This document shows positions 20,653-55,347 of a DNA stretch of 64,000 bases, piece after piece. The stretch's first letter is position 1. Each line of letters opens with the position of its first letter. A program made the position numbers and the translations under genes. This DNA is from Lysobacter spongiicola DSM 21749 (GTDB lineage: Bacteria; Pseudomonadota; Gammaproteobacteria; Xanthomonadales; Xanthomonadaceae): NCBI RefSeq assembly GCF_900167055.1, contig NZ_FUXP01000005.1, forward strand, positions 55,003 through 119,002. The letters run 5' to 3'. Below the pieces are notes generated by a model. It saw only the letters and a program-made list of their open reading frames with translations, did not search any database and was not told the DNA's origin.

Positions 20653-21417
20653 GTGGGGGCGCGGGTGAAGCCGACCGCATTCCCGCGGCAGGACGCCCGC
20701 ACCCTGTCCGACGACGGCGACGAGTTCTCGTTCTGTTCGACCTGCGCGTTCTCCCAGGCCTGCATGGCCGAGGGCATGGACAAGCGCTCGCTGATGGACC
20801 TGCACGTGCTGGTCGAGCACATCGGGCCGTTCCATGCCGGTGACCACATCTTCCGCGTCGGCGATCCGTTCGAAGCGATCGCCGCCGTCCGCGCCGGCAC
20901 CGTCAAGACCTACGTGATCGATCGGGACGGCCGCGAGCACGTGCTGGGCTTCTACCTGCCCGGCGAGGTGATCGGCCTCGATGCGATCGACGGCGAGACC
21001 TACCCCTGCAACGCGGTGGCGCTGGACACGGTGATGCTCTGCCGGTTCTCGTTCCCCAAAATCGCCGTGCTGGCCACGCGCCTGCCCGGCCTGCAGAAGC
21101 ATCTGTTCCGGCTGCTGAGCCGCGACATCGGCCGGGCCGCGCTGCTCGCCGGCGACTGGTCCGCCGACCAGCGCATGGCCGCCTTCCTGGTGGGCCTCTC
21201 GCGTCGCCTCGCGGCGCGCGGCTTCTCCCCCAACCGCTTCCAGCTGACGATGGCGCGCACCGACATCGCCAACTACCTGCGCCTGGCGCCGGAGACCGTC
21301 AGCCGGGTGCTGCGCCGGTTCCAGAAGGATGGCCTGCTGGATGTCGACCGGCGCGAGCTGGAGCTGATCGAGCGCGACAAGCTCGAAGACCTTGCCGAGC
21401 CGGTGCTCCGCGCCTGA
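20653..21417 (+). CDS. fnr: FNR/Anr-type transcriptional regulator (Crp/Fnr family)
   Basis: N-terminal Cys cluster FCSTCAFSQAC, a cNMP-binding-like domain and the C-terminal HTH TDIANYLRLAPETVSRVL. Confidence 0.85.
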   Translation: MGARVKPTAFPRQDARTLSDDGDEFSFCSTCAFSQACMAEGMDKRSLMDLHVLVEHIGPFHAGDHIFRVGDPFEAIAAVRAGTVKTYVIDRDGREHVLGFYLPGEVIGLDAIDGETYPCNAVALDTVMLCRFSFPKIAVLATRLPGLQKHLFRLLSRDIGRAALLAGDWSADQRMAAFLVGLSRRLAARGFSPNRFQLTMARTDIANYLRLAPETVSRVLRRFQKDGLLDVDRRELELIERDKLEDLAEPVLRA

Positions 21418-21532: not shown

Positions 21533-21546
21533 TTGACCTGTATCAA
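21533..21546 (+). promoter_or_regulatory. FNR/Dnr-type box TTGACCTGTATCAA
   Basis: TTGAC-N4-ATCAA site upstream of the norB ATG (21602). It coincides with the annotated 'start' of the over-long ORF. Confidence 0.65.
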
Positions 21547-21601
21547 CGCGGTAACCACCGGCAGCCGCGAGCATGCAGCAGCCATTCACGGAGATGACCC
21601 G

Positions 21602-23929
21602 ATGGGGAACACAAGAAAGCTATGGATAGGGCTTGCCGCCCTGCTCATCGCATCGTTCAGCGTGCTGCTGTGGTCTGGCGGCGAGATCAACAAGAACAAG
21701 CCTCCAATGCCGGAGCAGGTGGTGGCCGAGGACGGCACCGTCATCTACACGCGTGCCGACCTGGAGCGGGGCCGACAGGTCTGGCAGACCATGGGCGGCA
21801 TGCAATTGGGCTCGATCTGGGGCCACGGGGCCTACGTTGCGCCTGACTGGAGTGCCGACTGGCTGCACCGCGAGGCGAAGGCCATCCTCGACATGTGGGC
21901 GCGCGCCGAAGGCGGTGCCGCCACCTACGACGAGCTCCCCGCCGGAGAGCGTGCCGCGCTGCAGGGTCGCCTGCAGGAGATGATGCGCGAGAACACCTAC
22001 GACCCGGAGACCGGGACGATCACCCTGGACATGGACCGGGTGGTGGCGATCTCGAACGTCTCGGCCCATTACGAAAGCCTGTTCGGCAACGATCCGGCGA
22101 CCGCCGAGCTGCGCGAAGCGTATGCGATGAAGAACAACACGGTCCCCGATGCCGAGCATCGCCGGACCCTGGCTTCGTTCTTCTGGTGGACCGCATGGGC
22201 GGCAACCACGGAACGCCACACCGGCGTCGAGGAGACCCTCACCCCCGACCAGCCGGGCGTCCAGGAGCGTCGCGTCACCTACACCAACAACTGGCCGGGT
22301 GAGCCGCTGGTAGGCAACACGCCGCCACCGAGCACCTGGGTGTGGTCGGCCTTCAGCGTGCTGTTCCTGATCGCCGGCATCGCGATCCTGGGCTGGCACC
22401 ATGCGGTCACCCACGACAACGATCCGACCCACAAGATCCCCGACCGGGATCCGCTGGCACAGCTGAAGATCACCCCCTCCATGCGCGCCACCGCCAAGTA
22501 CTTCTGGCTGGTGCTCGCGCTGTTCCTGGTGCAGATCCTGTTCGGCGCGATGACCGCGCACTACCAGGTGGAAGGCCAGGAGGCCTACGGTTACCAGCTG
22601 GCGGAGATCCTGCCCTACTCGATCACCCGCACCTGGCACACGCAACTGGCGGTGCTGTGGATCGCGGTCGCCTGGCTGGGCACGGGCCTCTACATCGGGC
22701 CGGCACTGTCGGGCCATGAGCCGCGCTTCCAGCGGCTCGGCGTCAACTTCCTGTTCGTCTGCCTTGTGGTGATCGTCGTCGGTGCCTTCGCCGGCCAGTG
22801 GTTCGCCGTGATGCAGAAGCTCGGCATCGCCAACAACTTCTGGTTTGGCCACCAGGGCTGGGAGTACGCCGACATCGGCCGCTTCTGGCAGTGGTTCCTC
22901 TTCATCGGCCTGCTGCTGTGGCTGACGATGGTGGGCCGTTCGTTGTGGCCGATCCTGACCGGCCCCAAGACCGACACCAAGGCGATCGTCGGCCTGCTGT
23001 TCATGTCCACCGTCGCCATCGGCGTGTTCTTCGCCGCCGGCCTCATGTGGCGCGAGCACACCCACATCTCGATCGTCGAGTACTGGCGCTGGTGGCTGGT
23101 GCACCTGTGGGTGGAAGGCTTCTTCGAAGTGTTCGCCACCGCGGTGATGGCATTGATCTTCACCCGCCTGGGCCTGCTGCGCACTTCGACGGCCGCGGTG
23201 GCGGTGCTGTTCGCCACCATCGTGTTCATGACCGGCGGCGTGCTGGGCACCCTGCACCACCTGTACTTCGTCGGCAGCCCGACGGCGGTGATCGCGCTGG
23301 GCGCCAGCTTCAGTGCACTGGAAGTGGTGCCGCTGGCCTACATCGGCTTCGAGGCCTACCACACCTACAGGTTGGGCAAGGCAACGCCCTGGATGCGGCG
23401 CTACCGCTGGCCGATCTTCTTCTTCCTGTCGGTGTCGTTCTGGAACCTGGTGGGTGCCGGCCTGTTCGGCTTCCTGATCAACCCGCCGCTGTCGCTGTAC
23501 TACATGCAGGGCCTCAACCTGACGCCGCTGCACGGCCACACCGCACTGTTCGGCGTGTACGGCATGCTCGGCATCGCACTGGTGCTGTTCTGCATGCGTG
23601 GGCTGCGGCCGAACCAGGTGTGGAACGAGAAGGCACTGCGGCTCAGCTTCTGGTCGCTCAACATCGGCCTGGCATTGATGGCGGTGCTCACGCTGCTGCC
23701 GCTGGGCACGATGCAGCTTCTGGCGGCGATCGAACACGGCTACTGGTATGCACGCTCGGCCGAGTTCATGCAGAAGCCCATCGTCGACCTGCTGGTGTGG
23801 ATGCGGGTACCGGGCGATACGATCTTCAGCATCGGCGCGCTGGCCCTGATCTACTTCGTGCTGCGCCTCTGGGTGCGACCGAAGCTGGAAGAGCCTGACA
23901 AGCACCGGTCCGACATCCGGGCCGGCTGA
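21602..23929 (+). CDS. norB: quinol-dependent nitric oxide reductase (qNor) large subunit
   Basis: ~775 aa. The N-terminal NorC-like periplasmic extension is fused to a 12-TM heme-copper oxidase-like core (His ligands HHLYF, HGHTALFG). Confidence 0.85.
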   Translation: MGNTRKLWIGLAALLIASFSVLLWSGGEINKNKPPMPEQVVAEDGTVIYTRADLERGRQVWQTMGGMQLGSIWGHGAYVAPDWSADWLHREAKAILDMWARAEGGAATYDELPAGERAALQGRLQEMMRENTYDPETGTITLDMDRVVAISNVSAHYESLFGNDPATAELREAYAMKNNTVPDAEHRRTLASFFWWTAWAATTERHTGVEETLTPDQPGVQERRVTYTNNWPGEPLVGNTPPPSTWVWSAFSVLFLIAGIAILGWHHAVTHDNDPTHKIPDRDPLAQLKITPSMRATAKYFWLVLALFLVQILFGAMTAHYQVEGQEAYGYQLAEILPYSITRTWHTQLAVLWIAVAWLGTGLYIGPALSGHEPRFQRLGVNFLFVCLVVIVVGAFAGQWFAVMQKLGIANNFWFGHQGWEYADIGRFWQWFLFIGLLLWLTMVGRSLWPILTGPKTDTKAIVGLLFMSTVAIGVFFAAGLMWREHTHISIVEYWRWWLVHLWVEGFFEVFATAVMALIFTRLGLLRTSTAAVAVLFATIVFMTGGVLGTLHHLYFVGSPTAVIALGASFSALEVVPLAYIGFEAYHTYRLGKATPWMRRYRWPIFFFLSVSFWNLVGAGLFGFLINPPLSLYYMQGLNLTPLHGHTALFGVYGMLGIALVLFCMRGLRPNQVWNEKALRLSFWSLNIGLALMAVLTLLPLGTMQLLAAIEHGYWYARSAEFMQKPIVDLLVWMRVPGDTIFSIGALALIYFVLRLWVRPKLEEPDKHRSDIRAG

Positions 23930-23978: not shown

Positions 23979-24050
23979 GCGCAGCTCCGCACGCCGGCGC
24001 CTCTGATCTGGGTCAATGTCGTGCGGGCCCAAAGGAGCCATCCTGTCGCC

Positions 24051-25283
24051 ATGCAGAATTCCACCCCCCGCCCCGCTCCCGGGATGTCGCCGGCCATACT
24101 CGGCGAGGCCCCCCACCGGCTGATGTTCTTCATCGGCGCCACCAACGTGCTGCTCGCCATGGCCTGGTGGGCCGCGTGGCTGGTGTCGGCGCGCTGGCCG
24201 GGCTTCGTGATGCCGCAGCCCTCCCCCTTTGCCGGATGGCTGCACGCCTTCGTGATGCAGTACCAGGTACTGCCCAGCTTCTTCTTCGGCTTCCTGCTCA
24301 CCACCTTTCCCAAGTGGACCGGACAGCCCGACTTCGAGCGCTGGCGCTATGTCCCGGTCGGCCTGGGCCTGTTCGGCGGACAGCTGGCCACGCTGCTGGG
24401 CGCCGTCGGCTGGGAGGCCGGGATCATGGTCGGCCTGCTGATGACCATCGCAGGCTGGTTTGCCGGCCTGGTCACGCTCGCCCCGGTGCTGTGGCGCGAG
24501 CAGGGCACCACCTGGCATGCGCGCTCCTGCTTCGCCGGCCTGGCACTGGGTTTCATCGGCGTGCTGGCATGGACGGCCTTCAACCTCGGTGCCTCGCCCT
24601 TCTGGGTGTTCGTCAGCATCAAGCTCGGCACCTTCGGGTTGCTGCTGCCGGTCTACGTGACCGTCGCGCATCGCATGTTCCCGTTCTTCGCCAGCCGGGT
24701 GGTGCCCGGCTACGCGCAGTGGCGGCCGATGTGGCTGCTGGCGGCATTCTGGCCGCTGGCGCTCGGCCACCTGATCCTCGAGCTGTTCCATGCCTACGGC
24801 TGGCTGTGGATCGTCGACGTCCCGCTGTTGGCGATCACGACGCTGATGCTGTGGCGCTGGTGGCCGCGCGGGCCGAAGCCGGAGATCCTGGCGGTGCTGT
24901 TCGTCGGCCTGGCCTGGTTGCCGATCGCTTTCGCCCTCTACGTCGGCCAGAGCATCGCCTACGAGTTGACCGGCATCTACTGGCTCGGGCGCGGCCCGGC
25001 GCATGCGTTGTTCATCGGCTTCTTCGGCAGCGTGCTGGTGGCCATGGTGACGCGCGTCACCCAGGGGCACTCCGGCCGCCCGCTGAGCATGTCGCCCACG
25101 GCGTGGTTCGCGTTCGTGGCGATCCAACTGGTGGCGGTGACCCGGGTGGTGGCGGAAGTCGCACCCGACGCCATGGCCTGGCAGGCCGCTGCCGCGATCG
25201 GCTGGCTGGTGGCCTTCGCGCCCTGGGTGGTCCGTATCGGCGCCATCTACCTGACCCCGCGGATCGACGGCCGTCCGGGCTGA
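24051..25283 (+). CDS. nnrS: NnrS family protein (NO-response heme-copper membrane protein)
   Basis: About 12 TM helices. NnrS-like conserved His/aromatic pattern downstream of norB. Alternative starts lie at 24021 and 24084. Confidence 0.7.
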   Translation: MQNSTPRPAPGMSPAILGEAPHRLMFFIGATNVLLAMAWWAAWLVSARWPGFVMPQPSPFAGWLHAFVMQYQVLPSFFFGFLLTTFPKWTGQPDFERWRYVPVGLGLFGGQLATLLGAVGWEAGIMVGLLMTIAGWFAGLVTLAPVLWREQGTTWHARSCFAGLALGFIGVLAWTAFNLGASPFWVFVSIKLGTFGLLLPVYVTVAHRMFPFFASRVVPGYAQWRPMWLLAAFWPLALGHLILELFHAYGWLWIVDVPLLAITTLMLWRWWPRGPKPEILAVLFVGLAWLPIAFALYVGQSIAYELTGIYWLGRGPAHALFIGFFGSVLVAMVTRVTQGHSGRPLSMSPTAWFAFVAIQLVAVTRVVAEVAPDAMAWQAAAAIGWLVAFAPWVVRIGAIYLTPRIDGRPG

Positions 25284-40687: not shown

Positions 40688-42151
40688 ATGGCCGACCACG
40701 ACCTGCGCTCGTTTCTCGCCCGCCTGGAGGCAGCCGGCCAGTTGCGCCGCGTGCGGCAGCCGGTCGATCCGGTCCTGGAATCCACCTCGCTGTGCCTGCG
40801 TGCGCTCAAGTCGGGCGGCCCCGCGCTGTTGATGGAGCAGCCGGTCGGCGCGCGGCATCCCTTGCTCGGTAACCTGTTCGGCCACCGCGACCGGATCGAG
40901 GCGGCACTGGCCGGGCGCCCACTGGCGAGCCTGCGCGAGCTGGGCGAGCTGCTCGCGGCCATCAAGGAGCCGCGCTGGCCCTCCAACCTCAGGCAGGCCC
41001 TGTCCACGTGGCCCGAGCTGGCGCAACTGGCGCACGTTGCGCCCCGGCGCGTGCACGAGGCCGCGTTCCTGGACCAGACCCTCGGCGGCAGCGACATCGA
41101 CCTGTCGCGCCTGCCTATCCAGCACTGCTGGCCACAGGACGCGGCGCGGCTCATCACCTTCGGGCTGGTGATCACCCGCGGCACCCGCAAGCCGCGCCAG
41201 AACGTGGCGATCTACCGGATGCAGGTGATCGGCCCGGACAAGGTGATCATGCGCTGGCTGCCGCACCGTGGCGGTGCGCTCGACCATGCCGACTGGATGG
41301 CCGACCACCCCGACCGGCCGTTCCCGGTACTGGTGGCGATCGGCGCCGACCCGGCCACCATGCTCGCGGCGGTGGCACCGGTGCCGGACACGCTGTCGGA
41401 GTTCGAATTCGCCGGGCTGTTGCGGGGCGAGCGCACGCGGGTCTGGCACAGCGAGCGTACGGGACTGGATGCCCCGGCCGGGGCAGAGATGCTCATCGAG
41501 GGCGTGATCCGTCCGGGCGACACGGCGCTGGAGGGGCCGTTCGGCGACCACACCGGCTATTACAACGCCGCCGACCACTTCCCGGTGCTGAGCATCGAGC
41601 GCCTGCACCTGCGCCGGGACGCCATCTACCACGGCAGCTACATGGGCCGGGCACCCCACGACGAGCCATCGGTGCTGGCGATGGCGCTGAACGACATCTT
41701 CGTGCCGATCCTGCGCAAGGTATTTCCGGAGATCGTCGACTTCTTCCTGCCGCCGGAGGCCTGCTCCTATCGCATCGCGGTGGTGTCGATCCGCAAGCAG
41801 TACGCCGGCCATGCGCGGCGCATCATGATGGGTGTCTGGTCATACCTGCGGCAGTTCACCTACACCAAGTTCGTCATCGTCACCGACGCCGACATCGACG
41901 TGCGCGACTGGTCGCAGGTGATCTGGGCGGTATCGACACGCGTCGACCCGGCGCGCGACTCGATGATCGTCGAAGACACGCCGATCGACTACCTGGACTT
42001 CTCCAGTCCGCGGCCCGGGCTGGGGTCCAAGCTGGGCCTGGACGCCACCAACAAATGGCCCGGCGAGACCAGCCGCACCTGGAGCCGGCCGATCCGGCTC
42101 GATCCGCTGGTCGAGCAGCGTGTCGACGCGCTCTGGAAGGAACTGGCGTAG
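40688..42151 (+). CDS. ubiD: UbiD-family decarboxylase (4-hydroxy-3-polyprenylbenzoate decarboxylase)
   Basis: 487 aa with a conserved UbiD N-terminus ([17 protein letters not shown]) and core. Confidence 0.85.
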
Positions 42152-42250
42152 CGCACACCGCGAGCATCAGGCGCCTGCTTGATGCGCGTCATTCCGCCCG
42201 GCCCGTCCGGCGCCTATCGTCCGCGCAACTTCAAAGACGGGACCACGCCC

Positions 42251-43483
42251 ATGCAAGCGCTCCGAATCCACTGGCTTGCCCTGGCACTGCTGGCGGCGTC
42301 CGCGCCGGCCGCAGCCGGGGATGCCGCCGGCAAGGGCGGGGCCATCCTCGACCTGCGCTACCGCTTCGAACACGTCACCCAGGACAACGCACTGGACGAC
42401 GCCGACGCGCACACCCTGCGCACCCGCGTCGGTTACCGCACCGGCGCGTGGAACGGCTGGTCGGCACTGGTCGAAGCCGATGATGTCCGGCGGCTGGGCG
42501 GCCGTTACAACGACACCCGCAACGGCCGCACCGGCCATTCGGTCGTGGCCGATCCGGAGGGCACCGCGATCAACCAGGCGTTGCTGCACTTCGGCGGTGA
42601 GCGCGTGGCGGCAACCGTCGGCCGCCAGCGCATCAACCTGGACAACCAGCGTTTCGTGGGCGGCGTGGGCTGGCGCCAGAACGAACAGACCTACGACGGC
42701 GTCATGCTGCAGCTCACTCCCACCAAGAAGTTGAGCGCTACCTACGCATGGCTCGGACGGGTCAACACCGTCTTCGGGCCCGACGACGGCCCCCGTGCCA
42801 ATGCCGTCAACCGCGCCGACTCCGAAGGCGACAGCCACCTGCTCAACCTGCGCTACGCCATCTCGCCGCGCATGGTCGCAACCGGTTACCACTACCGGCT
42901 GGATCTGGACGACCTGGCAGTAACCGCCGGAGCACCGATGGATTCGCTCTCAAGCGCCACCACCGGCTTGCGCCTCGCCGGCACCTTCGAACGGCTGGAC
43001 TACGCGGCCGAGTTCGCCCGGCAGGATGCGCTGCACGGCAACCCGTGGGACCTCGACAGCCACTACCACCTGGTGGAACTGGGAATCCGGCTCGGCAAGG
43101 CACGGCTCGCAGCCGGGGAGGAGTTGCTCGGCGGTGCGGGCGGACCGGGCAACCGTGCGTTCCAGACGCCACTCGGCACCCGGCACAAGTTCCAGGGCTG
43201 GGCCGACATGTTCGTCACCACGCCAGCGGATGGCGTCCAGGACCGGTACGCCGGCGCGGTGGTGCCGGTGGCGGGAGGCTCGCTGCAGGCCTGGTACCAC
43301 GACTTCAGCGCCGAACGTGGCAGCGCTTCATACGGGACCGAACTGGACGTGTCCTACGCCCGCGGCATCCCCGGCGTGCCCGGGCTGGACGCGCTGCTCA
43401 AATACGCGCGCCATGACGCCGATCGCACCAGCCCGACCGTCGATACCGAAAAGTTCTGGCTGCAGGTGCAGTACACCTACTGA
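42251..43483 (+). CDS. alginate-export (AlgE-like) family outer-membrane beta-barrel protein
   Basis: Signal peptide (LALALLAASAPAAAG), alternating beta-strand pattern and a C-terminal aromatic residue (…VQYTY). Confidence 0.6.
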   Translation: MQALRIHWLALALLAASAPAAAGDAAGKGGAILDLRYRFEHVTQDNALDDADAHTLRTRVGYRTGAWNGWSALVEADDVRRLGGRYNDTRNGRTGHSVVADPEGTAINQALLHFGGERVAATVGRQRINLDNQRFVGGVGWRQNEQTYDGVMLQLTPTKKLSATYAWLGRVNTVFGPDDGPRANAVNRADSEGDSHLLNLRYAISPRMVATGYHYRLDLDDLAVTAGAPMDSLSSATTGLRLAGTFERLDYAAEFARQDALHGNPWDLDSHYHLVELGIRLGKARLAAGEELLGGAGGPGNRAFQTPLGTRHKFQGWADMFVTTPADGVQDRYAGAVVPVAGGSLQAWYHDFSAERGSASYGTELDVSYARGIPGVPGLDALLKYARHDADRTSPTVDTEKFWLQVQYTY

Positions 43484-44113: not shown

Positions 44114-45112
44114 ATGCAACTGGTATGTCCCGCCGGCAACCTGCCGGCGCTTCAGGCCGCCGTCGATGCCGGGGCCAACGCGGTCTACGCCGGCTTCCGC
44201 GACCAGACCAATGCCCGTGCATTCCCCGGGCTGAACTTTTCCGACCAGGAGCTGCAGGCGGGCATCCGCTACGCCCACGCCAAGGGCGCCAAGGTGTACC
44301 TCGCGCTCAACACCTATCCGGACAGCGTGCGCCTGCCGCAGTGGCAGGCCGCGGTCGACCGTGCGGCCGACTTCGGCTGTGATGCGATCATCGCCGCGGA
44401 GATCGCGGTCCTCGCCTATGCCGCCCGCCGCCATCCTGGCCTGCCACGCCACCTCTCCGTGCAGGGCTCGGCGACGACCGGGCCGGCGCTGCGCTTCGCC
44501 CATGAGCGCTTCGGCATCTCCCGCGCGGTGCTGCCGCGGGTGTTGTCGATCCAGCAGGTCGAGCGGCTGTGCCAGCGCTCGCCCGTGGCCATCGAGGTGT
44601 TCGCCTTCGGCAGCCTTTGCATCATGGTCGAAGGCCGTTGCCAGCTCTCCAGCTATGTCACCGGCGCCTCGCCCAACCGCCATGGCGTGTGCTCCCCGGC
44701 CAAGTTCGTGCGCTGGGACGAGTTCGACGACGGCAGCCGCACCGCACGCCTCAACGATGTGCTGATCGACCGCTTCGAGCCCAGCGAACCGGCCGGCTAC
44801 CCCACGGTCTGCAAGGGCCGGTTCGAGGTCGGTGGCGAGACCTTCCATGCGCTGGAAGAGCCGACCAGCCTCAACACCATGGAACTGTTGCCGCGGCTGG
44901 CGCGGGCGGGAGTGGCCGCACTGAAGATCGAAGGCCGCCAGCGCGGGGTGGCCTACGTCAGCGCCATCACCCGCACCTGGCGCACCGCGCTGGACCGCTA
45001 TGCCTCGCATCCGGAGTCCTGGGCGGTGGACGAGGAATGGCAGCGTTCGCTGTCCCGGCACGCCGAGGGTCACCAGACCACGCTCGGTCCCTACCACCGC
45101 TCCTGGCACTGA
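44114..45112 (+). CDS. ubiU: U32-family protein UbiU (O2-independent ubiquinone hydroxylation)
   Basis: U32 peptidase fold with the conserved Cys cluster. It is paired with ubiV downstream and is similar to YhbU. Confidence 0.8.
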   Translation: MQLVCPAGNLPALQAAVDAGANAVYAGFRDQTNARAFPGLNFSDQELQAGIRYAHAKGAKVYLALNTYPDSVRLPQWQAAVDRAADFGCDAIIAAEIAVLAYAARRHPGLPRHLSVQGSATTGPALRFAHERFGISRAVLPRVLSIQQVERLCQRSPVAIEVFAFGSLCIMVEGRCQLSSYVTGASPNRHGVCSPAKFVRWDEFDDGSRTARLNDVLIDRFEPSEPAGYPTVCKGRFEVGGETFHALEEPTSLNTMELLPRLARAGVAALKIEGRQRGVAYVSAITRTWRTALDRYASHPESWAVDEEWQRSLSRHAEGHQTTLGPYHRSWH

Positions 45113-45122
45113 GGGCCGCGAC

Positions 45123-46007
45123 ATGAAACTGAGCCTTGGCCCCCTCCAGTACTTCTGGCCGCGTGAACGCACCCTCGCCTTCTACCGCGAGGCCGCGGGC
45201 TGGCCGCTGGACGTGATCTACCTCGGTGAAACGGTGTGCAGCAAGCGCCGCGAGCTCGGCACCCGCGACTGGATCGAGCTGGCCGCTGAGCTGGCGGGCA
45301 GCGGCAAGCAGGTGGTGCTGTCCAGCCTGGCCCTGATCGAGGCCGAGTCCGAACTCGGCGTCCTCTCGCGGCTGGTCGCCGACGGCGGCTGCTGGATCGA
45401 GGCGAACGATCTTTCGGCGGTGCAGCTGTGCCGGGAAGCGGGCGTGCCGTTCGTGGCGGGCCCCACGCTCAACATCTACAACCACGAGGCGTTGGCGATG
45501 CTGATGGAGGACGGCCTGCGGCGCTGGGTGCCGGGCGTCGAGCAGGGCGAAACCCTGGTCCGTGAGCTCCGCGATGCGATGTTGGAGACGGGCCAGACAA
45601 TGCCCGAACTCGAGGTGATCGCCTGGGGCCGGCTGCCGCTCTCGCTCTCGGCCCGCTGCTTCACCGCGCGCGCGCTCGACGTGCCCAAGGACCAGTGCGG
45701 CTTCCGCTGCATCGATTATCCGGACGGCATGCCACTGGCCACCCGCGAGGGCCGGCCGTTCCTGCGCATCAATGGCATCCAGGTGCAGGGAGAGGAAACC
45801 ACCGACCTCGGGCCGGAGCTGCCATCCCTGCGCGCGCTGGGCGTCGACCTGCTCCGGATCTACCCGCAGGCCGAAGGCAGCCGCGAGATCGTCGAACACT
45901 TCGATCGGGCCCGCAGCTCTGACACGGCACCGGCGCGGCTTGGCGAACGCAACGGCTACTGGCATGGCGAGCCCGGCATGGTGATGTCCATCGCCGAGCC
46001 CGGCTGA
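45123..46007 (+). CDS. ubiV: U32-family protein UbiV
   Basis: MKLSLGPLQYFW N-terminus typical of YhbV/UbiV, with the Cys motif CGFRC. Confidence 0.8.
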   Translation: MKLSLGPLQYFWPRERTLAFYREAAGWPLDVIYLGETVCSKRRELGTRDWIELAAELAGSGKQVVLSSLALIEAESELGVLSRLVADGGCWIEANDLSAVQLCREAGVPFVAGPTLNIYNHEALAMLMEDGLRRWVPGVEQGETLVRELRDAMLETGQTMPELEVIAWGRLPLSLSARCFTARALDVPKDQCGFRCIDYPDGMPLATREGRPFLRINGIQVQGEETTDLGPELPSLRALGVDLLRIYPQAEGSREIVEHFDRARSSDTAPARLGERNGYWHGEPGMVMSIAEPG

Positions 46008-46799: not shown

Positions 46800-48050
46800 T
46801 CAGACCCTGGCAAACACCAGCGTGGCGTTGGTGCCGCCGAAGCCGAAGCTGTTGGACATCACCGTCTTCAGTTCCGCATCCTGGCTCTCGCGCAGGATCG
46901 GGAATCCCTCCGCCTTGGGATCCAGCGTCTCGATGTTGGCCGAGCCGGCCATGAACCCGCCGCGCATCATCAACAGGCAGTAGATCGCCTCGTGAACGCT
47001 GGCGGCGCCAAGTGAGTGGCCCGTCAGGGCCTTGGTCGACGACAGCGGCGGGACGTCCTCGCCGAACACTTCGCGTACCGCACCCAGTTCGACCACGTCG
47101 CCGACCGGGGTCGAGGTGCCGTGGGTGTTCAGGTAATCGATGGTCCCGACCTCGCGACCATCGAATCCCGCCAGCGCCATCTTCATGCAGCGCACCGCGC
47201 CTTCCCCGGACGGGGCGACCATGTCGACGCCGTCGGAGGTGACGCCATAACCCACCAGCTCGGCGATGATGTCCGCGCCGCGGGCCTTGGCATGCTCGTA
47301 CTCTTCCAGCACCAGCATGCCGCCACCACCGGCAATGACGAAGCCGTCGCGGTCGATATCGTACGGGCGGGAGGCGGTCTCCGGCGTGTCGTTGTGTTTG
47401 GTCGACAGCGCACCCATCGCGTCGAACTGCGAGGTCATGCCCCAGTGCAGTTCCTCGCCACCGCCGGCGAACATCACGTCCTTGACGCCATGGCGGATGA
47501 GATCCGCGGCCGCGCCGATGCAGTGGGCAGAGGTCGCGCAGGCGGCGGAGATCGAATAGCTCAGCCCACGGATACCGAACGCGGTCGAGAGCGCCGCGGA
47601 CACGGTCGATCCCATCGTGCGCGGCACCATGTAGGGGCCCACCTTGCGCACGCCCTTCTGGCGCATCAGGTCGCCAGTGGCGATCTGCCACTCGGGCGAG
47701 CCGCCACCAGAACCGGCGATCAGCCCGCTGCGCTCGCCGCGCACCTGCTCGTCCGCCAGGCCGGCCTGCGCGATCGCATCGCGCATCGACACGTAGGCGT
47801 AGGCGGCGGCATCGCCCATGAAACGCTTGAGCTTGCGGTCGATCTGCTCGACCAGGTCGATCTGCGGCGCACCTGCGACATGGCTGCGGAGTCCCATCTC
47901 GGCGTATTCGGGAACGAAGCGGATGCCGGCGCGCAGCTTGCGCAGCGACTCGGTGACGCTGGCCGCGGCGTTGCCGATGCACGACACCACGCCCATGCCG
48001 GTCACGACCACGCGGCGGGAACCGCCTCCAGCGGCATTGATGGCAGCCAT
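46800..48050 (-). CDS. fabB: 3-oxoacyl-ACP synthase I
   Basis: KAS I active-site context ([21 protein letters not shown]) and an operon with fabA upstream. Confidence 0.9.
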
Positions 48051-48051
48051 A

Positions 48052-48567
48052 TCAGAATCCTTCGGTCGAGGAGAACAGGCCGACCCGCAGGTCGGTAGCG
48101 GTATAGATCTCGCGGCCATCGACCAGCGTGCGGCCATCGGCGATGACCAGCTCCAGCTTGCCGCGCATGACCCGGCGGATGTCGATCTCGTAGCTGACCA
48201 GCTTCGCGTCGGGCAACACCTGGCCGGTGAACTTCACCTGGCCCACGCCCAGCGCGCGGCCGCGCCCGGGGGCGCCCAGCCAGGGCAGGTAGAACCCGCA
48301 CAACTGCCACATCGCATCCACGCCGAGGCAGCCGGGCATCACCGGGTCGCCCTGGAAGTGGCAGTCGAAGAACCAGAGGTCCGGACGGATGTCGAGCTCG
48401 GCCCGGACCACGCCCTTGCCGTACTTGCCACCCTCGATCGAGATCTCGGTGATGCGGTCGAACATGAGCATCGGCGGAAGCGGCAGGCGCGCGTTGCCTG
48501 GGCCGAACATCTCGCCACGGCCGCATGCCAGCAGTTGCTCATAGTCGAACGAAGAAGGTCGATTCAT
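48052..48567 (-). CDS. fabA: 3-hydroxydecanoyl-ACP dehydratase/isomerase
   Basis: 171 aa with a FabA hot-dog fold ([24 protein letters not shown]). Confidence 0.9.
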
Positions 48568-48710
48568 GTCGTCAGGCGCTGTGGAAACCCCGATTTTGCC
48601 GGTTTGGCGCGATGATTGCGTTGACGGCCATCAACCCGCTGGCCCCGTACGCCGGTGTATGGGCGCTCGCGTTACCGGTTGGAGGGGCTGGTGCGTGCCG
48701 GAAACCGGCC

Positions 48711-50153
48711 TCAGGCGGCGGTCCTGGAGACGGCCGGAGGCAGGGGTTCGTCCTCGCGCCAGTGGGCGCCGGTGCTGACCCGCCGCTGCAGTGCACAGGT
48801 CAGCAGCCGCCAGGCCAGTCCTGCCTGCCATCCCCGCCGGCCCATGGGCGTTACGGTTTCCAGCGCCGCCGCAAGGCCGGCGCCGCTGCGCACCGGCCCT
48901 GCGGCCTCCCACATCACGCTGCGCAGGGTCTGCAGGTCCCCGGCCTGCAGCGACGGCCCCCGCTCGATCACCGCACGCGCACCCGCCCCCTCGCTCGCGC
49001 CAAGCCCCGCCAGGTGCGCCCCGAGCATTCGCCCGAACACCACCCCCTCCAGCAGCGAGTTGCTGGCCAGCCGGTTGGCGCCATGCACGCCGTTGCACGC
49101 CACCTCCCCCACAGCGTGCAGCCCGGGCACGGTGGTCCGCCCCAGGTCGTCCGTCGCTACCCCGCCCATGTGGAAGTGCGCGGCGGCCGTCACCGGGATC
49201 GCCTCCGCCCGCGGGTCGATGCCGTGGGCGAGGCAGGAGGCCAGCACCGTCGGGAAGCGCCGCTCCCAGTCGATCCACCCGCCGCGCGCGTCCAGCACCA
49301 CCCGGCCCGTGTCGCGTCGGGCCTGCCACACGCGGCGCGCGACGATATCCCGCGGCGCCAGGTCCCCTTGCGGATGCACCCCCTCCATCAGTGCGCGGCC
49401 ATCGCCGTCGAACAATCGCGCGCCAGCCCCGCGCAGCGCTTCGGTCACCAGGGGCAACGAGCCGCTGCCGACGTCCAGCGCGGTCGGGTGGAACTGCACG
49501 AACTCCAAGTCGCGCGGATGCGCCCCAACCGCCAGCGCCAGCGCCAGTCCGGCCCCATCTGAACCTGGCGGATTGCTGGTGTGGGCGAACAGGGCACCGA
49601 TGCCGCCGGTCGCCAGCACCACGGTGCCTGCCTGCAGCAGGGCCCCATCGCCCGCGAGGCGGACCCCGGACGCGCGCCCGCCCTGCATCAGCAACGCATC
49701 CACGTCGCCCTCGTACCAGTCGATGTGCGCGGCGGCACGGGCCGCGCTCGACAGCGCGGCCATGGCCGCGGCACCCGTGGCGTCACCCCCCGCGTGCACG
49801 ATGCGGGCAACGCGGTGGCCCCCTTCCCGCCCCAGCCGCAGACGATCGCCATCGCGATCGAACGCGACGCCAAGCGACTGCAGCCAAGAGATCGCCTCCG
49901 GCGCCGCCCTCGTCAACGTCCGTACCCGCGGCCCATCGTTGCGGAACGCGCCCGCCACCAGCGTGTCGCTGGCGTGGGCGTCGGCCGAGTCACCTGCGCC
50001 GACCGCCGCGGCGATGCCCCCCTGGGCCAGCGCGCTCGCGCTGGGTCCGCGACCGGCCCGTCCCAGCAGCACGACCGGTCGGGGCGCCGCGGCCAGCGCG
50101 ACGCTCAACCCGGCGATGCCACTGCCGACCACCACCAGCCGCGTGCCAGCCAT
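48711..50153 (-). CDS. nadB: L-aspartate oxidase
   Basis: FAD Rossmann N-terminus VVGSGIAGLSVA and a fumarate reductase/SDH-like core. Confidence 0.85.
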   Translation of the reverse strand: MAGTRLVVVGSGIAGLSVALAAAPRPVVLLGRAGRGPSASALAQGGIAAAVGAGDSADAHASDTLVAGAFRNDGPRVRTLTRAAPEAISWLQSLGVAFDRDGDRLRLGREGGHRVARIVHAGGDATGAAAMAALSSAARAAAHIDWYEGDVDALLMQGGRASGVRLAGDGALLQAGTVVLATGGIGALFAHTSNPPGSDGAGLALALAVGAHPRDLEFVQFHPTALDVGSGSLPLVTEALRGAGARLFDGDGRALMEGVHPQGDLAPRDIVARRVWQARRDTGRVVLDARGGWIDWERRFPTVLASCLAHGIDPRAEAIPVTAAAHFHMGGVATDDLGRTTVPGLHAVGEVACNGVHGANRLASNSLLEGVVFGRMLGAHLAGLGASEGAGARAVIERGPSLQAGDLQTLRSVMWEAAGPVRSGAGLAAALETVTPMGRRGWQAGLAWRLLTCALQRRVSTGAHWREDEPLPPAVSRTAA

Positions 50154-51187
50154 CAGACCTGCTCGCGCCGGCCCACCGCCAGCATCCGGTCCAGCGCCCG
50201 GCGTGCGCGCTCGGCCACGCCGGGGGCCACCACCACCTCGTGCCTGAGGTCACGCAGGCAGGCATGGATGTTGGGCAGGTTGATCCGCTTCATGTGCGGG
50301 CAGAGGTTGCACGGCTTGATGAACTGCACCCGCGGGAACCGGTTCTTCAGGTTGTCCGCCATCGAGCACTCGGTGATCATCGCCACCCGCTCGGGTTGTT
50401 CCTTTTCAAGCCAGCGGCCCATCGCACTGGTGGAGCCGACGAAATCGGCCTCGGCCAGCACCTCCGGCGAGCACTCCGGGTGCGCGACGACCTTCGTGTC
50501 GAACTGCTCGCGGGTATGTCGCACCTGCTGCGCGGTGAAGGTCTCGTGCACCTCGCAGGTGCCGTTCCAGAGCACCAGCTCGACCTCGGTCTGCGTAGCC
50601 ACCCAGCTACCCAGGTAGCGGTCGGGCAGGAAGATGACCTGCCGGGCGCCGGTTTCGGCAGCGATCGCTTCCACTACCTGCACCGCGTTGGCCGAGGTGC
50701 AGCACGCGTCGGATTCGGCCTTCACTTCGGCCGAAGTGTTGACGTAGCTGACCACCGGCACGCCCGGGTGGCGGGTCCGCAGCGCCCGCACGTCGGCGGC
50801 GGTGATGGAAGCCGCCAACGAGCAGCCGGCCTCCAGGTCCGGGATCAGCACGGTCTTCCCGGGCGCGAGGATCTTTGCGCTCTCGGCCATGAAGTGCACG
50901 CCGCACAGCACGATCAGGTCGCTGTCGCAGTCCGCCGCGGCCTGGGCGAGTGCCAGCGAGTCGCCGGTGATGTCCGCCACCCCGTGGAAGATCTCCGGCG
51001 ACTGGTAGCTGTGCGCCATGATCACCGCGCCGCGATCCTTCTTGAGCGCATTGATCGCATCGATCCATGGCAGGTGCATCGGCACCTCCATGCACGGGAT
51101 CAGTTGTTCGAGCGTCGCCACCAGCGGTGCGTACTCGGTCTCGAGTCCATCGCGCCAGCGCGGCGCGGCCAATGCGTTTGCAGTCAT
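50153..51187 (-). CDS. nadA: quinolinate synthase
   Basis: Conserved NadA Cys ligands and VVAHPECSPEV motifs. Start/stop overlaps with nadB. Confidence 0.9.
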   Translation of the reverse strand: MTANALAAPRWRDGLETEYAPLVATLEQLIPCMEVPMHLPWIDAINALKKDRGAVIMAHSYQSPEIFHGVADITGDSLALAQAAADCDSDLIVLCGVHFMAESAKILAPGKTVLIPDLEAGCSLAASITAADVRALRTRHPGVPVVSYVNTSAEVKAESDACCTSANAVQVVEAIAAETGARQVIFLPDRYLGSWVATQTEVELVLWNGTCEVHETFTAQQVRHTREQFDTKVVAHPECSPEVLAEADFVGSTSAMGRWLEKEQPERVAMITECSMADNLKNRFPRVQFIKPCNLCPHMKRINLPNIHACLRDLRHEVVVAPGVAERARRALDRMLAVGRREQV

Positions 51188-51200
51188 GCGGCTTCGCTTG

Positions 51201-51224
51201 GTAGGAGCGGCTTCAGCCGCGGTC
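51201..51224. repeat. solo half of GTAG REP (single arm, no inverted partner)
   Basis: GTAGGAGCGGCTTCAGCCGCGGTC. The stop codon of ORF 51213-52172 (TGA on the minus strand) lies inside it. Confidence 0.7.
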
Positions 51225-52172
51225 GGATGTCATGTCGGCGGTCGCGCCGCGGTGGGCCGCGCGTGCCGCCCTGGCCAGCCGCGCACCCCGGTTCAGGCCG
51301 ATCCGGAGGCCAAGCGGCACCGACTCCCAGGGCAGCCGTTCCAGCAGGTTGCGCACCGTCAGCCCCAGTTCGACGTCACCGGTCAGCACCAGTCGCCGCT
51401 GGAAGAACAACGTGTCCGCGTCTTCCAGGCGGCTGGCCAGCAGGAGCAGGTCGGTGGCGGTGCCGCGCACGGTGGCTTCGGCCAGGTCGGTGGTCACCCG
51501 CAGCACATCGCCCTGCCGCTGCACCACCCAGGACAAGCCCAGGTCGGTGACTTCCACGCCCAGCCGCCGGTCTCGCATGAAATCCAGGTCCGGCCCCGCC
51601 ATGGGTACGGCCAGCACCCGCCCCATCGCCCGCTCCAGCAGCCGGGCGCGGGTGCGCTGCGGAAGCCGTCGAAGCAGCGGCGCCAGGCGGGAGGGCGGCG
51701 GAACCAGGGCCAGCAGCCTGGCGGCGGGACGGAAGGACACGTGGGCGGAGGTCGTCATGGCGGGCACGATGCCGGTGCCGGCCAGGACGTCGCCTTGACC
51801 CAGGTCATCCCACCCGCGTTGCGCCCGATGGGCGTCGCGGATCACAAGGTCCATCAGGGCGCGGGTCGTCTCGCGTGGCACCCCGAGCCGGGCGGCAAGC
51901 CGTTGCCCGCGCGAATGCACGGCCCCCTCGCGCTGCGCGTCACGCACGGGAACGCCACGCTGGCATTTCAGCCGGCCGGCCGTGGCGGCCAGGCGTGCGC
52001 GCGCCGCCACCAGCACCAGCAAAGCGTCGTCAACCACGTCGATGCCCCGGCGCACGCCTCCGAGCGTGGCGATCGGAACCACGCCGCTCAGTGGCCTTGC
52101 GGTACCGGTGCGTCGGCGTCCGGGCTGCCCCATCTCGGCACGTGGTCGTCGATGCCGGCTGCATCGAGCCAC
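51213..52172 (-). CDS. ubiT: chorismate-mutase (AroQ)-like domain fused in-frame to SCP2 protein UbiT
   Basis: The C-terminal ~180 aa match E. coli UbiT/YhbT (DADTLFFQRRLVLTGDVELGLTVRNLLE vs DPDTLFFQRRLVIEGDTELGLYVKNLMD). The N-terminal ~100 aa show an AroQ pattern (GIDVVDDALLVLVAARARLAATAGRLK...VPVRDAQRE). There is no stop between them. The true start is uncertain, and the short form would begin at 51758. Confidence 0.6.
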   Translation of the reverse strand: MARCSRHRRPRAEMGQPGRRRTGTARPLSGVVPIATLGGVRRGIDVVDDALLVLVAARARLAATAGRLKCQRGVPVRDAQREGAVHSRGQRLAARLGVPRETTRALMDLVIRDAHRAQRGWDDLGQGDVLAGTGIVPAMTTSAHVSFRPAARLLALVPPPSRLAPLLRRLPQRTRARLLERAMGRVLAVPMAGPDLDFMRDRRLGVEVTDLGLSWVVQRQGDVLRVTTDLAEATVRGTATDLLLLASRLEDADTLFFQRRLVLTGDVELGLTVRNLLERLPWESVPLGLRIGLNRGARLARAARAAHRGATADMTSDRG

Positions 52173-52356
52173 TCACCCATGCCAGTGGCAGGGCCCATCG
52201 CCCCCGTGTGGAACTGCCAGTCGAATTCGGTCATGGTGTCGCTGCCTGCGTGGTCTTCACGACACACAGGAGACGCTATTCCGGGGATCCGGGCAGTGAC
52301 CTGGATCAAGTGCGGGGCCGGCACGCCGGGAAGTGCCTGGAAGCCAGCCCGCGAAA

Positions 52357-52370
52357 TTTGATCCTGATCA
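52357..52370 (+). promoter_or_regulatory. FNR-like box TTGATCCTGATCAG
   Basis: One mismatch from TTGAT-N4-ATCAA. It lies 67 bp upstream of nirK, in the divergent nirK/ubiT intergenic region. Confidence 0.55.
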
Positions 52371-52437
52371 GGTCCCGGGGACCGCAATGCCTCACCCTCG
52401 CCGTCATGGCGCCAGCCATTTACTCCAGGGAGACTCC

Positions 52438-53970
52438 ATGAAACGTGCACCCCGCTTCATTGCCGCGACATTGGCCGCTTCGGCGCTGCTGCTGTCGGCC
52501 TGCGACGGCGACAACGATGCCACCCGTCCCGCAGGCGACCAGGCCAGTGCCGAGGCCGACGGAGAGACCGGCGGCTCGCGCAAGGGTGACTTCGGCCCGC
52601 CCCAGGGCGATCCGATCAATGCCGTGCTGACGTCGCCGCCGCACGTTCCGCCACCGGTCAACCGCAACCATCCGGCCAAGGTGGTGGTCGAGCTGGACGT
52701 GGTCGAGAAAGTGATGCCGATCTCCGAAGGCGTGGACTACACGTTCTGGACCTTCGGCGGCACGGTGCCCGGCAGCTTCATCCGCGTGCGCCAGGGCGAC
52801 ACGGTGGAGTTCCACCTGCGCAACATGCCCGACAGCAAGATGCCCCACAACATCGACCTGCACGGCGTCACCGGGCCGGGTGGCGGCGCGAGCTCCAGTT
52901 TCACCGCACCGGGCCACAAGACCCAGTTCACCTTCAAGGCCCTCAACGCCGGCCTGTACGTCTACCACTGCGCCACCGCGCCAGTGGGCATGCACGTCGC
53001 CAACGGCATGTACGGCCTGATCCTGGTCGAGCCGCCGGAGGGCCTGCCCCCGGTCGACAAGGAGTACTACGTGATGCAGGGCGACTTCTACACCACCGGC
53101 AAGTACCGGGAGAAGGGCCTGCAGCCGTTCGACATGGAGAAGGCGATCGACGAGAACCCGACCTACGTCCTGTTCAACGGATCGGAAGGCGCGATCACCG
53201 GCGACAAGGCCCTGACCACCTCGGTCGGCGAGAACGTCCGCCTGTACGTCGGCAACGGCGGCCCGAACCTGGTGTCGAGCTTCCACGTGATCGGCGAGAT
53301 CTTCGACAAGGTCTGGTACGAGGGCGGCACCCACTTCCAGGAGAACGTGCAGACCACGCTGATCCCGGCGGGCGGCGCGGCCATGATGGAGTTCCACATG
53401 GAGGTGCCCGGCAGCTACGTGCTGGTCGACCACAGCCTGTTCCGTGCCTTCAACAAGGGCGCGCTGGGCATCCTCAAGGCCGATGGCCCCGAGAACAAGG
53501 AGATCTACTCGGGCCTGGAGGTCGACGAGGTCTACATCGGCGACCGCGCGCAGGCGAACATGGAAGCGGTCGCCGTCGCTGCCGAGGCCGCCAGCACCGG
53601 CGACCTCACCGTCGACCAGCAGGTCAAGGCTGGCGAGGCGCTGTTCATGGGTACCTGCTCGACCTGCCACCAGGCCAACGGCCAGGGCATGGCCGGGGTC
53701 TTCCCGCCGCTCGCCAACTCGGACTACATCGCCAATGATCCCACGTCGGTGCCCCGCGTGACGCTGCACGGCCTGCAGGGCAAGATCACCGTCAACGGCA
53801 CCGAGTACAACTCGATCATGCCGCCGATGGCCCAGCTGACCGACGACGAGGTGGCCAATATCTCCACCTTCGTGCTCAACAGCTGGGGCAACCCGGGTGG
53901 TCGCGTGACCAAGGCCGAAGTGGCCGAGATCCGCAAGAACAAGCCTGAAAATGCTTCCGAAGGCCACTGA
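52438..53970 (+). CDS. nirK: copper-containing nitrite reductase with C-terminal cytochrome c domain
   Basis: Lipoprotein-like signal (LLLSAC), cupredoxin domains with T1/T2 Cu ligands (HNIDLHG, HCATAP...M) and a C-terminal CSTCH heme-c motif. Confidence 0.9.
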
Positions 53971-54745
53971 CCCGGGCCTGCGTGCGGCAGCCGCGCTACT
54001 GGCGGCGGTGGTCTCCACCGCCGCCGGTGCAGCCGACAAGGGTTATGCGGAGCTGCCCGGGGGCAGCTTCCGCAGCACGCTCGCCTACGAAGACATCAGC
54101 GCGGACCTGCGGGTCCGCCCCTTCGCGATGATGAAGCGGCCGGTGACCAACGGCGAGTTCCTCGCATTCGTGCAGGCGAATCCGCAATGGCGCCGGGACC
54201 GCGTCCCCACGGTGATGGCCGAGCCGAGGTACCTGTCGCACTGGGATGGTCCGACCGAGCTGGGCGAGGCCAGTGCCGGGCAACCCGTGGTCCAGGTCAG
54301 CTGGTTCGCAGCCTCCGCGTACTGCGAGGCCCAAGGCGCAAGGCTGCCGACCTGGACAGAGTGGGAGTACGCGGCGGCGGCCGATGAAACCCGCCGCGAC
54401 GCGCGCAAGGACCCGGTCTGGCGCGAGCGCATCCTGGCCTGGTATTCGCGCCCCTCCAACGCCGCCCTTCCCCGGGCCGGCCTGCAGACGCCGAACGTGT
54501 ATGGCGTGCAGGACCTGCATGGCCTGGTGTGGGAATGGACCGATGACTTCTCCTCGCTGCTGGTGGATGCGGACAACCGCAACCAGGGCGACCCCGACAA
54601 CGCGCGCTTCTGCGGCGCCGGGGCGCTGTCGATGGACGATCGCGACAACTACGCGGTGCTTATGCGGGTGGCGATGCTGTCCTCCCTGGGCGCCGAAGAC
54701 ACCACCGGCAACCTCGGCTTCCGCTGCGTCAAGGACCTCCCATGA
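53951..54745 (+). CDS. nirV: NirV (formylglycine-generating-enzyme/SUMF1-like) protein
   Basis: FGE-sulfatase fold motifs ([20 protein letters not shown]). The canonical position is downstream of nirK. Confidence 0.75.
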
Positions 54746-55347
54746 AACGCATGCTCCCTTCGCTGCTGGCAGCCGTCGTGGTTCTCGCCGGCATCGCCGC
54801 GCCGGCCGTTGCCGCGCAATCGCCTGCCGCGCAGTCACCGCTACCGCGCGATTCGATCTACCAGCTGCCGGTGCAACTCACCGACCAGGATGGCCGCACG
54901 CAGCCCTGGAGTGCCCTTCGCGGCAAGCCCCGGCTGATGGCGATGTTCTACACCTCGTGCCAGTACATCTGCCCGTTGATCGTCGACAGCGGCAAGGCCA
55001 TCGAAAAGCAGCTGGACGAGCGGGAACGCGGCCGGATCGGCATCGTGCTGATCAGCATGGACCCGGAGCGCGACGACCCGGCAGCGCTGAAGAAGGTGGT
55101 GGAACAGCGCAAGCTCGACACCTCGCGCTGGACGCTGGCCAGCCCGCCCACCGGCGAGGTCCGCGCCGTCGCAGGCGTGCTGGACACCCGCTACCGCGCC
55201 CTCGCCGATGGCGAGTTCAACCACACCAGTTCGCTGGTCCTGGTGGATGCGGATGGCCGCATCCTGGCCCGCACCGACCAGATGGGCAGCAAGCCGGACC
55301 CCGAGTTCGTCGCAAAGGTGAAGCAGGCGCTGCGCCAGCCTCTGTAG
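54742..55347 (+). CDS. SCO1/SenC family copper chaperone
   Basis: Thioredoxin-fold CxxxC (CQYIC) plus a conserved His. A signal peptide is present. The stop TAG is supplied by the REP. Confidence 0.8.
   Translation: MKRMLPSLLAAVVVLAGIAAPAVAAQSPAAQSPLPRDSIYQLPVQLTDQDGRTQPWSALRGKPRLMAMFYTSCQYICPLIVDSGKAIEKQLDERERGRIGIVLISMDPERDDPAALKKVVEQRKLDTSRWTLASPPTGEVRAVAGVLDTRYRALADGEFNHTSSLVLVDADGRILARTDQMGSKPDPEFVAKVKQALRQPL

Follow-up and report, generated by a model that had tools for sequence, protein, structure and literature searches.

The window analysed here, a stretch of 64,000 nucleotides from Lysobacter spongiicola DSM 21749 (NCBI RefSeq assembly GCF_900167055.1, contig NZ_FUXP01000005.1, positions 55,003 to 119,002 of the forward strand), contains a gene of the O2-independent ubiquinone (UQ) pathway that, by its sequence, encodes a member of the UbiT family with an extra N-terminal chorismate mutase (CM) domain of the AroQ type. 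This CM-UbiT fusion recurs throughout the Xanthomonadales, it retains the catalytic residues of a mutase, and its gene is linked to ubiU and ubiV, which encode the subunits of the O2-independent hydroxylase. From sequence and genomic context, we consider it likely that CM-UbiT makes prephenate beside the lipid intermediates held by its UbiT domain, and that this prephenate would feed UbiU/UbiV.

Domain architecture and conservation of the fusion

The maximal open reading frame (ORF), 51213..52172 on the minus strand, spans 319 aa and holds an AroQ and a UbiT/SCP2 domain in one frame, with no stop codon between them. In the numbering of this ORF, the Pfam domain CM_2 (PF01817) is matched at aa 40-118 with 49.4 bits (E-value 5.5e-13; gathering threshold 27 bits), and the match covers profile positions 1-79 of 80, that is, the full-length domain. 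SCP2 (PF02036) is matched at aa 192-278 (46.7 bits; gathering threshold 21.3 bits) and the NCBIfam UbiT equivalog NF047962 at aa 167-283, where 117 bits were obtained for a cut-off of 46.9, over profile positions 1-119 of 120. Besides CM_2 and SCP2, the Pfam scan of the ORF, taken up to an E-value of 1, returned just two chance-level matches and no UbiC-type (Chor_lyase) domain. A preliminary description of this DNA, made from the letters alone, had proposed the in-frame fusion on the basis of an AroQ helical signature, and the profile matches to both halves agree with it. The UbiT half is approximately 35% identical to E. coli UbiT over 144 aa. In an AlphaFold2 (AF2) model of the fusion, calculated as a monomer, the C-terminal domain has a predicted local distance difference test score (pLDDT) of 84-94, and its best match in the PDB is UbiJ-SCP2 (6h6p, template modelling (TM) score 0.68, Foldseek), followed by SCP2 proteins.

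A genome scan with one genome per species, in which 329 relatives were found, was used to follow the fusion, and the locus counts given here and below refer to the best 80 of the 329, which are the closest to the query. In all of these 80 loci, the match begins at about residue 37 of the ORF and thus includes the CM domain. The fusion is present in the Lysobacteraceae (Lysobacter, Novilysobacter, Thermomonas, Arenimonas, Luteimonas, Stenotrophomonas, Pseudoxanthomonas and Xanthomonas chitinilytica) as well as in the Rhodanobacteraceae (Dyella, Frateuria, Rhodanobacter, Dokdonella and Rudaea). The same architecture was found at the protein level, with both PF01817 and PF02036 present in all of the 120 best matches. 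Within a protein library clustered at 50% identity, approximately 33 clusters contain the full-length fusion, down to an identity of 41%, and those divergent fusion clusters that bear names are all from Xanthomonadales; the other library matches are proteins of 150-200 aa, with similarity limited to the UbiT half. As judged from these sequences, the fusion is conserved across the Xanthomonadales and is old. At the other end of the scale, the gene and its closest relative (locus L081) show just 13 differences, too few for a ratio of nonsynonymous to synonymous substitution rates (dN/dS).

The public annotation of these proteins, "UbiT" or "SCP2 domain protein", conceals the enzymatic domain. 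No paper describing a CM-UbiT fusion was found in the literature searched, subscription-only papers being outside the search; none of the searchable papers on UbiT also mentions chorismate mutase, and the 2024 paper on prephenate discussed below mentions neither UbiT nor any fusion (PMC10990095). The fusion is thus new to the searchable literature, UbiT and the AroQ mutases themselves being known.

Active site and fold of the mutase domain

The CM domain aligns to E. coli chorismate mutase (EcCM, 1ecm) without gaps and in the same register, residues 9-88 on residues 9-88 (HMMER; here and below, residues are numbered in the 289-aa protein that results from the start codon proposed below). This alignment, together with the CM_2 match, supports the helical signature noted earlier. 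Seven of the eight catalytic residues of EcCM (R11', R28, K39, D48, R51, E52, S84 and Q88) are identical in the fusion, the exception being S84. Among 178 fused homologues, with identities of 41-65%, the seven are retained almost without exception, K39 in all 178, R28, R51 and E52 in 177 each, R11 in 176, D48 in 175 and Q88 in 170, and the position of S84 is always taken by a small residue (Ala in 165, Cys in 6, Gly in 5 and Ser in 2). Ala was one of the residues that directed evolution selected at the position of S84 when it turned the lyase PchB into a mutase (PMC12329711).

The predicted structure is consistent with this assignment. AF2 places three helices in the N-terminal domain, at residues 7-41, 49-66 and 70-88 (pLDDT 82-96), and the domain superposes on 1ecm with a root mean square deviation of 1.1-1.2 Å over 83-84 residues and a TM score of 0.82-0.86 (Foldseek), the identity in the structural alignment being 31%. 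Given the residues retained and the fold predicted, the N-terminal domain is probably a catalytically competent chorismate mutase.

Linkage to ubiU and ubiV and a proposed function

The window has ubiU and ubiV at a distance of 5.2 kb from the fusion gene. Across species, the two are found at a distance of at most 10 kb from the fusion in all of the 55 loci that have at least 9 kb of downstream flank (55/55), and in seven loci ubiV is just 48-154 bp from the fusion gene. The gene order seen across species is CM-ubiT, often followed by nadAB and/or fabAB, and then by ubiV-ubiU, in the convergent orientation, and ubiD.

A biochemical meaning of a mutase in this place is suggested by work on E. 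coli, in which genetics and isotope labelling have shown that prephenate donates the oxygen for the three UbiU/V-dependent hydroxylations (2024, PMC10990095). A strain deleted for pheA and tyrA makes no anaerobic UQ, and is rescued when prephenate is added or when the CM domain of PheA is supplied by itself (PMC10990095). RlhA and TrhP, the two other characterised U32 systems, are likewise prephenate-dependent (PMC6599085), and there has been no in vitro assay of U32 hydroxylases so far (PMC10990095). UbiT has been proposed as the scaffold of an anaerobic metabolon with UbiUV, in which it binds the UQ intermediates (PMC10470549). Regarding the supply of prephenate, a survey of 69 Xanthomonadaceae genomes reported, as the sole non-secreted CM gene annotated, that of the P-protein (CM_2, prephenate dehydratase (PDT) and ACT domains), which is found in every genome, consumes prephenate itself and bears the Phe regulatory (ACT) domain (PMC5700972). 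Since the P-protein is present in every surveyed genome, the fused CM would be an extra one.

Based on the above, we propose that, when O2 is low or the cells denitrify, the polyprenyl-phenol intermediates would be held by the UbiT domain for UbiU/UbiV, the U32 Fe-S hydroxylases, while the AroQ domain, at the other end of a disordered tether of about 26 residues, would convert chorismate to prephenate. UbiU and UbiV would use this prephenate as their organic oxygen donor, three molecules per ubiquinone, and the fusion would give the pathway a local prephenate supply of its own, independent of the Phe-regulated P-protein. We infer here that the mutase is active, that its prephenate reaches UbiUV, and that the tethering brings a kinetic or channelling benefit. 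An order-wide CM-UbiT fusion adjoining ubiUV provides independent comparative-genomic support, of the Rosetta-stone type, for the prephenate link. It also points to UbiT as the meeting place of the lipid substrate and the supply of the oxygen donor, it suggests that in denitrifiers the pathway can be limited by how much prephenate is available, and it makes CM-UbiT a convenient protein for reconstitution and for tests of metabolite channelling.

The linker itself contains conserved elements. Residues 91-116 have a pLDDT below 50 and are predicted to be disordered; directly after the mutase domain, at aa 93-97 (51792-51806), there is a motif DL(D/G)QG with invariant D93 and Q96, and a second motif, G-x-[MI]-I-x-x-x-M (51756-51779, minus strand), ends at Met109. 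The presence of conserved motifs within a linker that is disordered in the model suggests a docking motif. It is possible, although we regard it as doubtful, that CM-UbiT is a physically coupled module that docks with UbiU/UbiV, perhaps via DLDQG, so that prephenate would be made and consumed in one complex. If this were the case, the fusion would represent a naturally occurring, self-sufficient form of the anaerobic metabolon for ubiquinone, and a prephenate-dependent hydroxylase of the U32 family could be reconstituted in vitro for the first time, the components being chorismate, the lipid substrate, CM-UbiT and UbiUV.

Points against the proposal and other explanations

Several observations weigh against the proposed prephenate supply. 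Unfused UbiT serves the same pathway in E. coli and Pseudomonas, and the fusion is therefore not demanded by the chemistry. Also, unfused close relatives of the UbiT half exist: the stand-alone UbiT P0143, 60% identical to it, is encoded beside a U32 gene and has no CM gene upstream, the arrangement that is seen in L083, a metagenome contig on which the gene of a stand-alone UbiT (201-749, 60% identical) is convergent with a U32 gene. No chorismate mutase gene was found upstream of the stand-alone ubiT of L083, where the upstream gene is not CM-like; the contig of L084 is too short in this respect. Within the mutase domain, S84 of EcCM is replaced by Ala, and none of the 18 chorismate mutase models of NCBIfam reaches its equivalog cut-off, the best being PRK06285 with 41.7 bits for a cut-off of 77. 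Since no such cut-off is reached, the fused domain is, at the level of sequence, a divergent and distinct AroQ subfamily. Concerning physical channelling in particular, the AF2 model has no interface between the domains, a disordered linker and a predicted TM score (pTM) of 0.52. Finally, an FNR-type box (TTGAT-N4-ATCAA with at most one mismatch) is located within 450 bp upstream of the fusion in just 8 of the 80 loci, and such a box was rejected as a general feature of the upstream region.

One other explanation is that the AroQ domain is non-catalytic, and serves as a sensor or carrier of chorismate or prephenate, or as a dimeriser of UbiT. The AroQ fold dimerises intrinsically, forming intertwined dimers (PMC12329711), the scores under all of the equivalog cut-offs and the replacement of S84 by Ala count in favour of such a role, and contacts with other proteins are suggested by the two conserved motifs of the linker, DLDQG and G-x-[MI]-I-x-x-x-M. 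Against this, the catalytic set is kept in 170-178 of the 178 homologues while identity over the remainder of the domain has fallen to about 50%. Given that pure binding or dimerisation would not require the catalytic set, a non-catalytic role is hard to reconcile with such strict conservation, and we think it unlikely.

Somewhat less credible still is the explanation that the domain is an ordinary additional CM for anaerobic aromatic amino-acid synthesis, fused by chance to the neighbouring ubiT and without coupling to ubiquinone. Fusions of neighbouring genes can be neutral, the fact that Met109 aligns with the position where stand-alone UbiT proteins begin suggests that two adjacent genes gave rise to the fusion, and the cluster does hold other genes of O2-independent biosynthesis (nadAB, fabAB and hemN). 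Nevertheless, the fusion has been retained across two families of the order, with linkage to ubiUV in every locus that could be scored, the product of the fused enzyme is the exact co-substrate of UbiUV (PMC10990095), and a housekeeping P-protein is already available in the Xanthomonadaceae.

The preliminary description had suggested a different role, in which the domain could channel a chorismate-derived ring precursor, e.g., 4-hydroxybenzoate (4-HB). On this reading, the AroQ-fold domain would be a lyase whose substrate is chorismate or isochorismate and whose product feeds the UbiT-bound pathway. The AroQ fold does include the pyruvate lyase PchB, and ubiquinone synthesis begins with chorismate-derived 4-HB. 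AroQ enzymes are not known to produce 4-HB. In a 2025 study, seven positions were found to discriminate PchB from EcCM (P50/A51/V55/W86/Y87/I88/E90 versus R47/D48/E52/D83/S84/V85/T87), and emphasis was placed on Glu52, a residue that binds the chorismate 4-OH group, as the hallmark of a mutase (PMC12329711). Members of the fusion family carry R, D, E, D/E and A at the first five positions, where PchB has P, A, V, W and Y. Moreover, the fusion-family profile gives 44 bits on 1ecm (E-value 1.5e-10) and about 22 bits on PchB, and the isochorismate-lyase model NF005475 is matched with 14.7 bits for an NCBIfam cut-off of 126. A PchB-type lyase was thus rejected, on D, E and A at the positions of A51, V55 and Y87 and on the score of the lyase model, and so was a UbiC-type lyase, given that the Pfam scan returned no such domain. 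In Xanthomonas, the 4-HB for CoQ8 is made by the chorismatase XanB2 (PMC4682078). Also, 4-HB is required with or without O2, whereas the fusion gene is tied to O2-independent hydroxylases. Channelling of 4-HB was consequently abandoned as highly improbable.

Start codon and the internal methionine

The preliminary description had given the whole ORF, 51213-52172, as the fusion. Its upstream AroQ region is conserved as protein in 80 species, and this part of the claim holds, whereas the first 30 codons are probably untranslated. Their GC content by codon position (Table 1) is unlike the coding pattern of this 68% GC genome, which is seen in the CM domain (0.87/0.54/0.82) as well as in the UbiT domain (0.81/0.53/0.88), and the sequence 5' of the CM domain shows no conservation among homologues. 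For these two reasons a start at 52172 was rejected. GTG 52082, or its equivalent, is the start given by NCBI and by the gene callers of two metagenome assemblies (L081 and L082), with proteins of 289-290 aa, and an entry of the same length, P0001 ("UbiT [Novilysobacter spongiicola]"), shows 100% identity to the 289-aa protein. GTG 52082 is the likely start, and since the CM domain lies inside the 289-aa protein, the fusion stands despite the shorter start.

Within an otherwise variable linker, Met109 (51756-51758) is kept in 70 of 75 species loci, and in the alignment it coincides with the initiator Met of UbiT proteins that stand alone. Met109 probably either survives from an ancestor with two separate genes or belongs to a peptide motif. 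That it could be the only start, so that a stand-alone UbiT is made and the upstream domain lies outside the functional protein, is suggested by this very conservation and alignment, yet it was rejected and can hardly be credited, given that the CM region is coding-like (GC at the third position 0.82), that its active site is intact as protein in all 80 species loci, and that no Shine-Dalgarno enrichment precedes the Met in the species loci (mean of -1.9 kcal/mol versus a background of -3.3). An extra short isoform might be made from Met109 besides the full fusion.

Gene neighbourhood and regulation

The window is an island of anaerobic and denitrification functions, with hemN, an FNR-family regulator, qNor, NnrS, nirK and FNR boxes (Table 1). 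The UbiD-family decarboxylase near ubiUV reaches 688 bits on the ubiD equivalog NF008175, under its cut-off of 788. Directly downstream of the fusion gene and co-directional with it are nadA and nadB, with a gap of 25 nt and a 1-nt overlap, respectively, and no terminator-like site was found between the small ORF described below, the fusion gene, nadA and nadB. The last three of these probably form one operon.

In most Xanthomonadales loci, genes for other pathways lie between the fusion gene and ubiVU, nadA in 56 and fabA in 41 of the 80. An FNR-type box is found at 48621-48634, upstream of fabA. Together, nadAB, fabAB, hemN and ubiUVT look like a conserved island of O2-independent biosynthesis, in which nadAB presumably may substitute for the O2-requiring kynurenine route to quinolinate known in Xanthomonads. 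Between ubiD and ubiU, at 42179-43483 (plus strand), the window encodes a protein of 434 aa in which a beta-barrel domain, "Alginate export", is matched with 42 bits; a paralogue of it (37-42% identity) is encoded upstream of the fusion gene in 39 of the 80 loci. In the complete genome of Dyella jiangningensis (CP007444.1), a locus of about 20 kb (hemN, fnr, nirK, the fusion, fabAB, ubiVU and ubiD) is found at two places, 131759-152577 (L013) and 5183763-5204581 (L014), with identical tblastn match positions and percent identities; this repeat is either a large duplication or an assembly artefact.

The window contains five FNR-type boxes, as defined above, versus 0.42 expected by chance. The fusion gene is divergent from nirK across a region with such a box, as first described, and the box was confirmed here; a degenerate second one lies 62 bp from it, and both are conserved in the Lysobacter loci L001 and L002. 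The two boxes, placed between nirK and a small ORF, resemble the pair of Fnr sites in the ubiT-ubiUV intergenic region of E. coli. FNR/Dnr-type control of the fusion gene is plausible in this window.

The small ORF, of 48 codons, is located between the boxes and the fusion gene, in a frame different from that of the latter. Its GC content by codon position is coding-like (0.69/0.55/0.78), a gene call for it is present in L081 and L082, and it ends 5 nt ahead of the GTG of the fusion gene, with which it may be translationally coupled. No Pfam family was matched by this ORF. Weak homologues of it (M-T-E-F/Y ... E-C/W-L-D-A-A-G-I-D) are encoded divergently from nirK in L002, L004, L005 and L062, and it may be a small nirK-associated protein.

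Table 1. Features of the window, with positions counted from its first nucleotide.
Feature	Position	Strand	Remarks
CM-UbiT fusion gene	51213..52082	-	289 aa; likely start GTG 52082; stop codon 51213-51215
AroQ chorismate mutase domain	51819..52064	-	aa 7-88 of the 289-aa protein; Pfam CM_2, AF2
Flexible linker	51732..51818	-	aa 89-117; AF2 pLDDT <50 at aa 91-116
UbiT (SCP2 lipid-binding) domain	51216..51731	-	aa 118-289; NCBIfam UbiT, Pfam SCP2
N-terminal extension of the maximal ORF	52083..52172	-	probably untranslated in this frame; GC at codon positions 1/2/3 0.77/0.80/0.60
48-codon upstream ORF	52234..52088	-	between the boxes and the fusion gene, different frame; product MTEFDWQFHTGAMGPATGMGEWLDAAGIDDHVPRWGSPDADAPVPQGH
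Degenerate second FNR-type box GTGACCTGGATCAA	52296-52309	.	2 mismatches; 68.5 nt before the ATG of the small ORF
FNR-type box TTGATCCTGATCAG	52358-52371	.	1 mismatch; 73.5 nt before the nirK ATG
nirK, copper nitrite reductase with C-terminal cytochrome c domain	52438-53970	+	TIGR02376, 374 bits versus 296
FGE-sulfatase-like gene	53951-54745	+	
SCO1/SenC	54742-55347	+	
Probable cbb3 oxidase genes	from 57294	+	
nadA	50153-51187	-	Pfam NadA
nadB	48711-50153	-	Pfam FAD_binding_2
fabB and fabA	46800-48567	-	translation and tblastn only
ubiV, partner U32 subunit	45123-46007	+	NCBIfam UbiV, 346 bits versus 275; start checked
ubiU, U32-family O2-independent hydroxylase subunit	44114-45112	+	NCBIfam UbiU, 529 bits versus 440
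UbiD-family decarboxylase, probable ubiD	40688-42151	+	TIGR00148, 469.8 bits versus 244.85
NnrS	24021-25283	+	
Quinol nitric oxide (NO) reductase (qNor)	21533-23929	+	
FNR-family regulator	20653-21417	+	below the Fnr model cut-off
hemN	19248-20645	+	N-terminal sequence and tblastn only

Comparison with known systems

The closest known counterparts of the C-terminal half are UbiT (YhbT) of E. coli and PA3911 of P. aeruginosa, with which the fusion has in common the UbiT-model C-terminal region of about 170 aa, the linkage to ubiU/ubiV and an FNR-type setting (PMC6747719, PMC10470549). E. coli UbiT, with 174 aa and no CM domain (PMC6747719), and the stand-alone clusters of 150-200 aa lack the approximately 117 aa of AroQ domain and linker found at the N-terminus of the fusion. 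The best structural match of the C-terminal domain is UbiJ, the SCP2 factor of the aerobic Ubi metabolon, which serves the O2-dependent flavin hydroxylases, whereas the sequence of the fusion matches the UbiT model and not UbiJ.

Regarding the N-terminal half, the three-helix topology and seven catalytic residues are shared with EcCM, i.e., the CM domain of PheA (1ecm, AroQ alpha subclass). The partners differ, since EcCM is joined to prephenate dehydratase and a Phe-binding ACT domain and the mutase studied here to a lipid-binding SCP2 domain. Without dehydratase and ACT, the fusion has no obvious feedback control and no enzyme that would immediately consume prephenate. PchB, which is dimeric, has the same AroQ fold and has several active-site arginines and a lysine in common with the fusion domain; it differs at P50, A51, V55, W86 and Y87, for which the residues of the fusion family (R, D, E, D and A) are EcCM-like except for the Ala at the position of S84, and the profile score of PchB is half that of true mutases. 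Finally, a UbiT-UbiU fusion is found in Zymomonas mobilis, and likewise represents a Rosetta-stone type tie of UbiT to a component of O2-independent hydroxylation (PMC6747719). There, the partner is the hydroxylase subunit itself, whereas in the Xanthomonadales the partner would be the maker of the oxygen-donor co-substrate of that hydroxylase.

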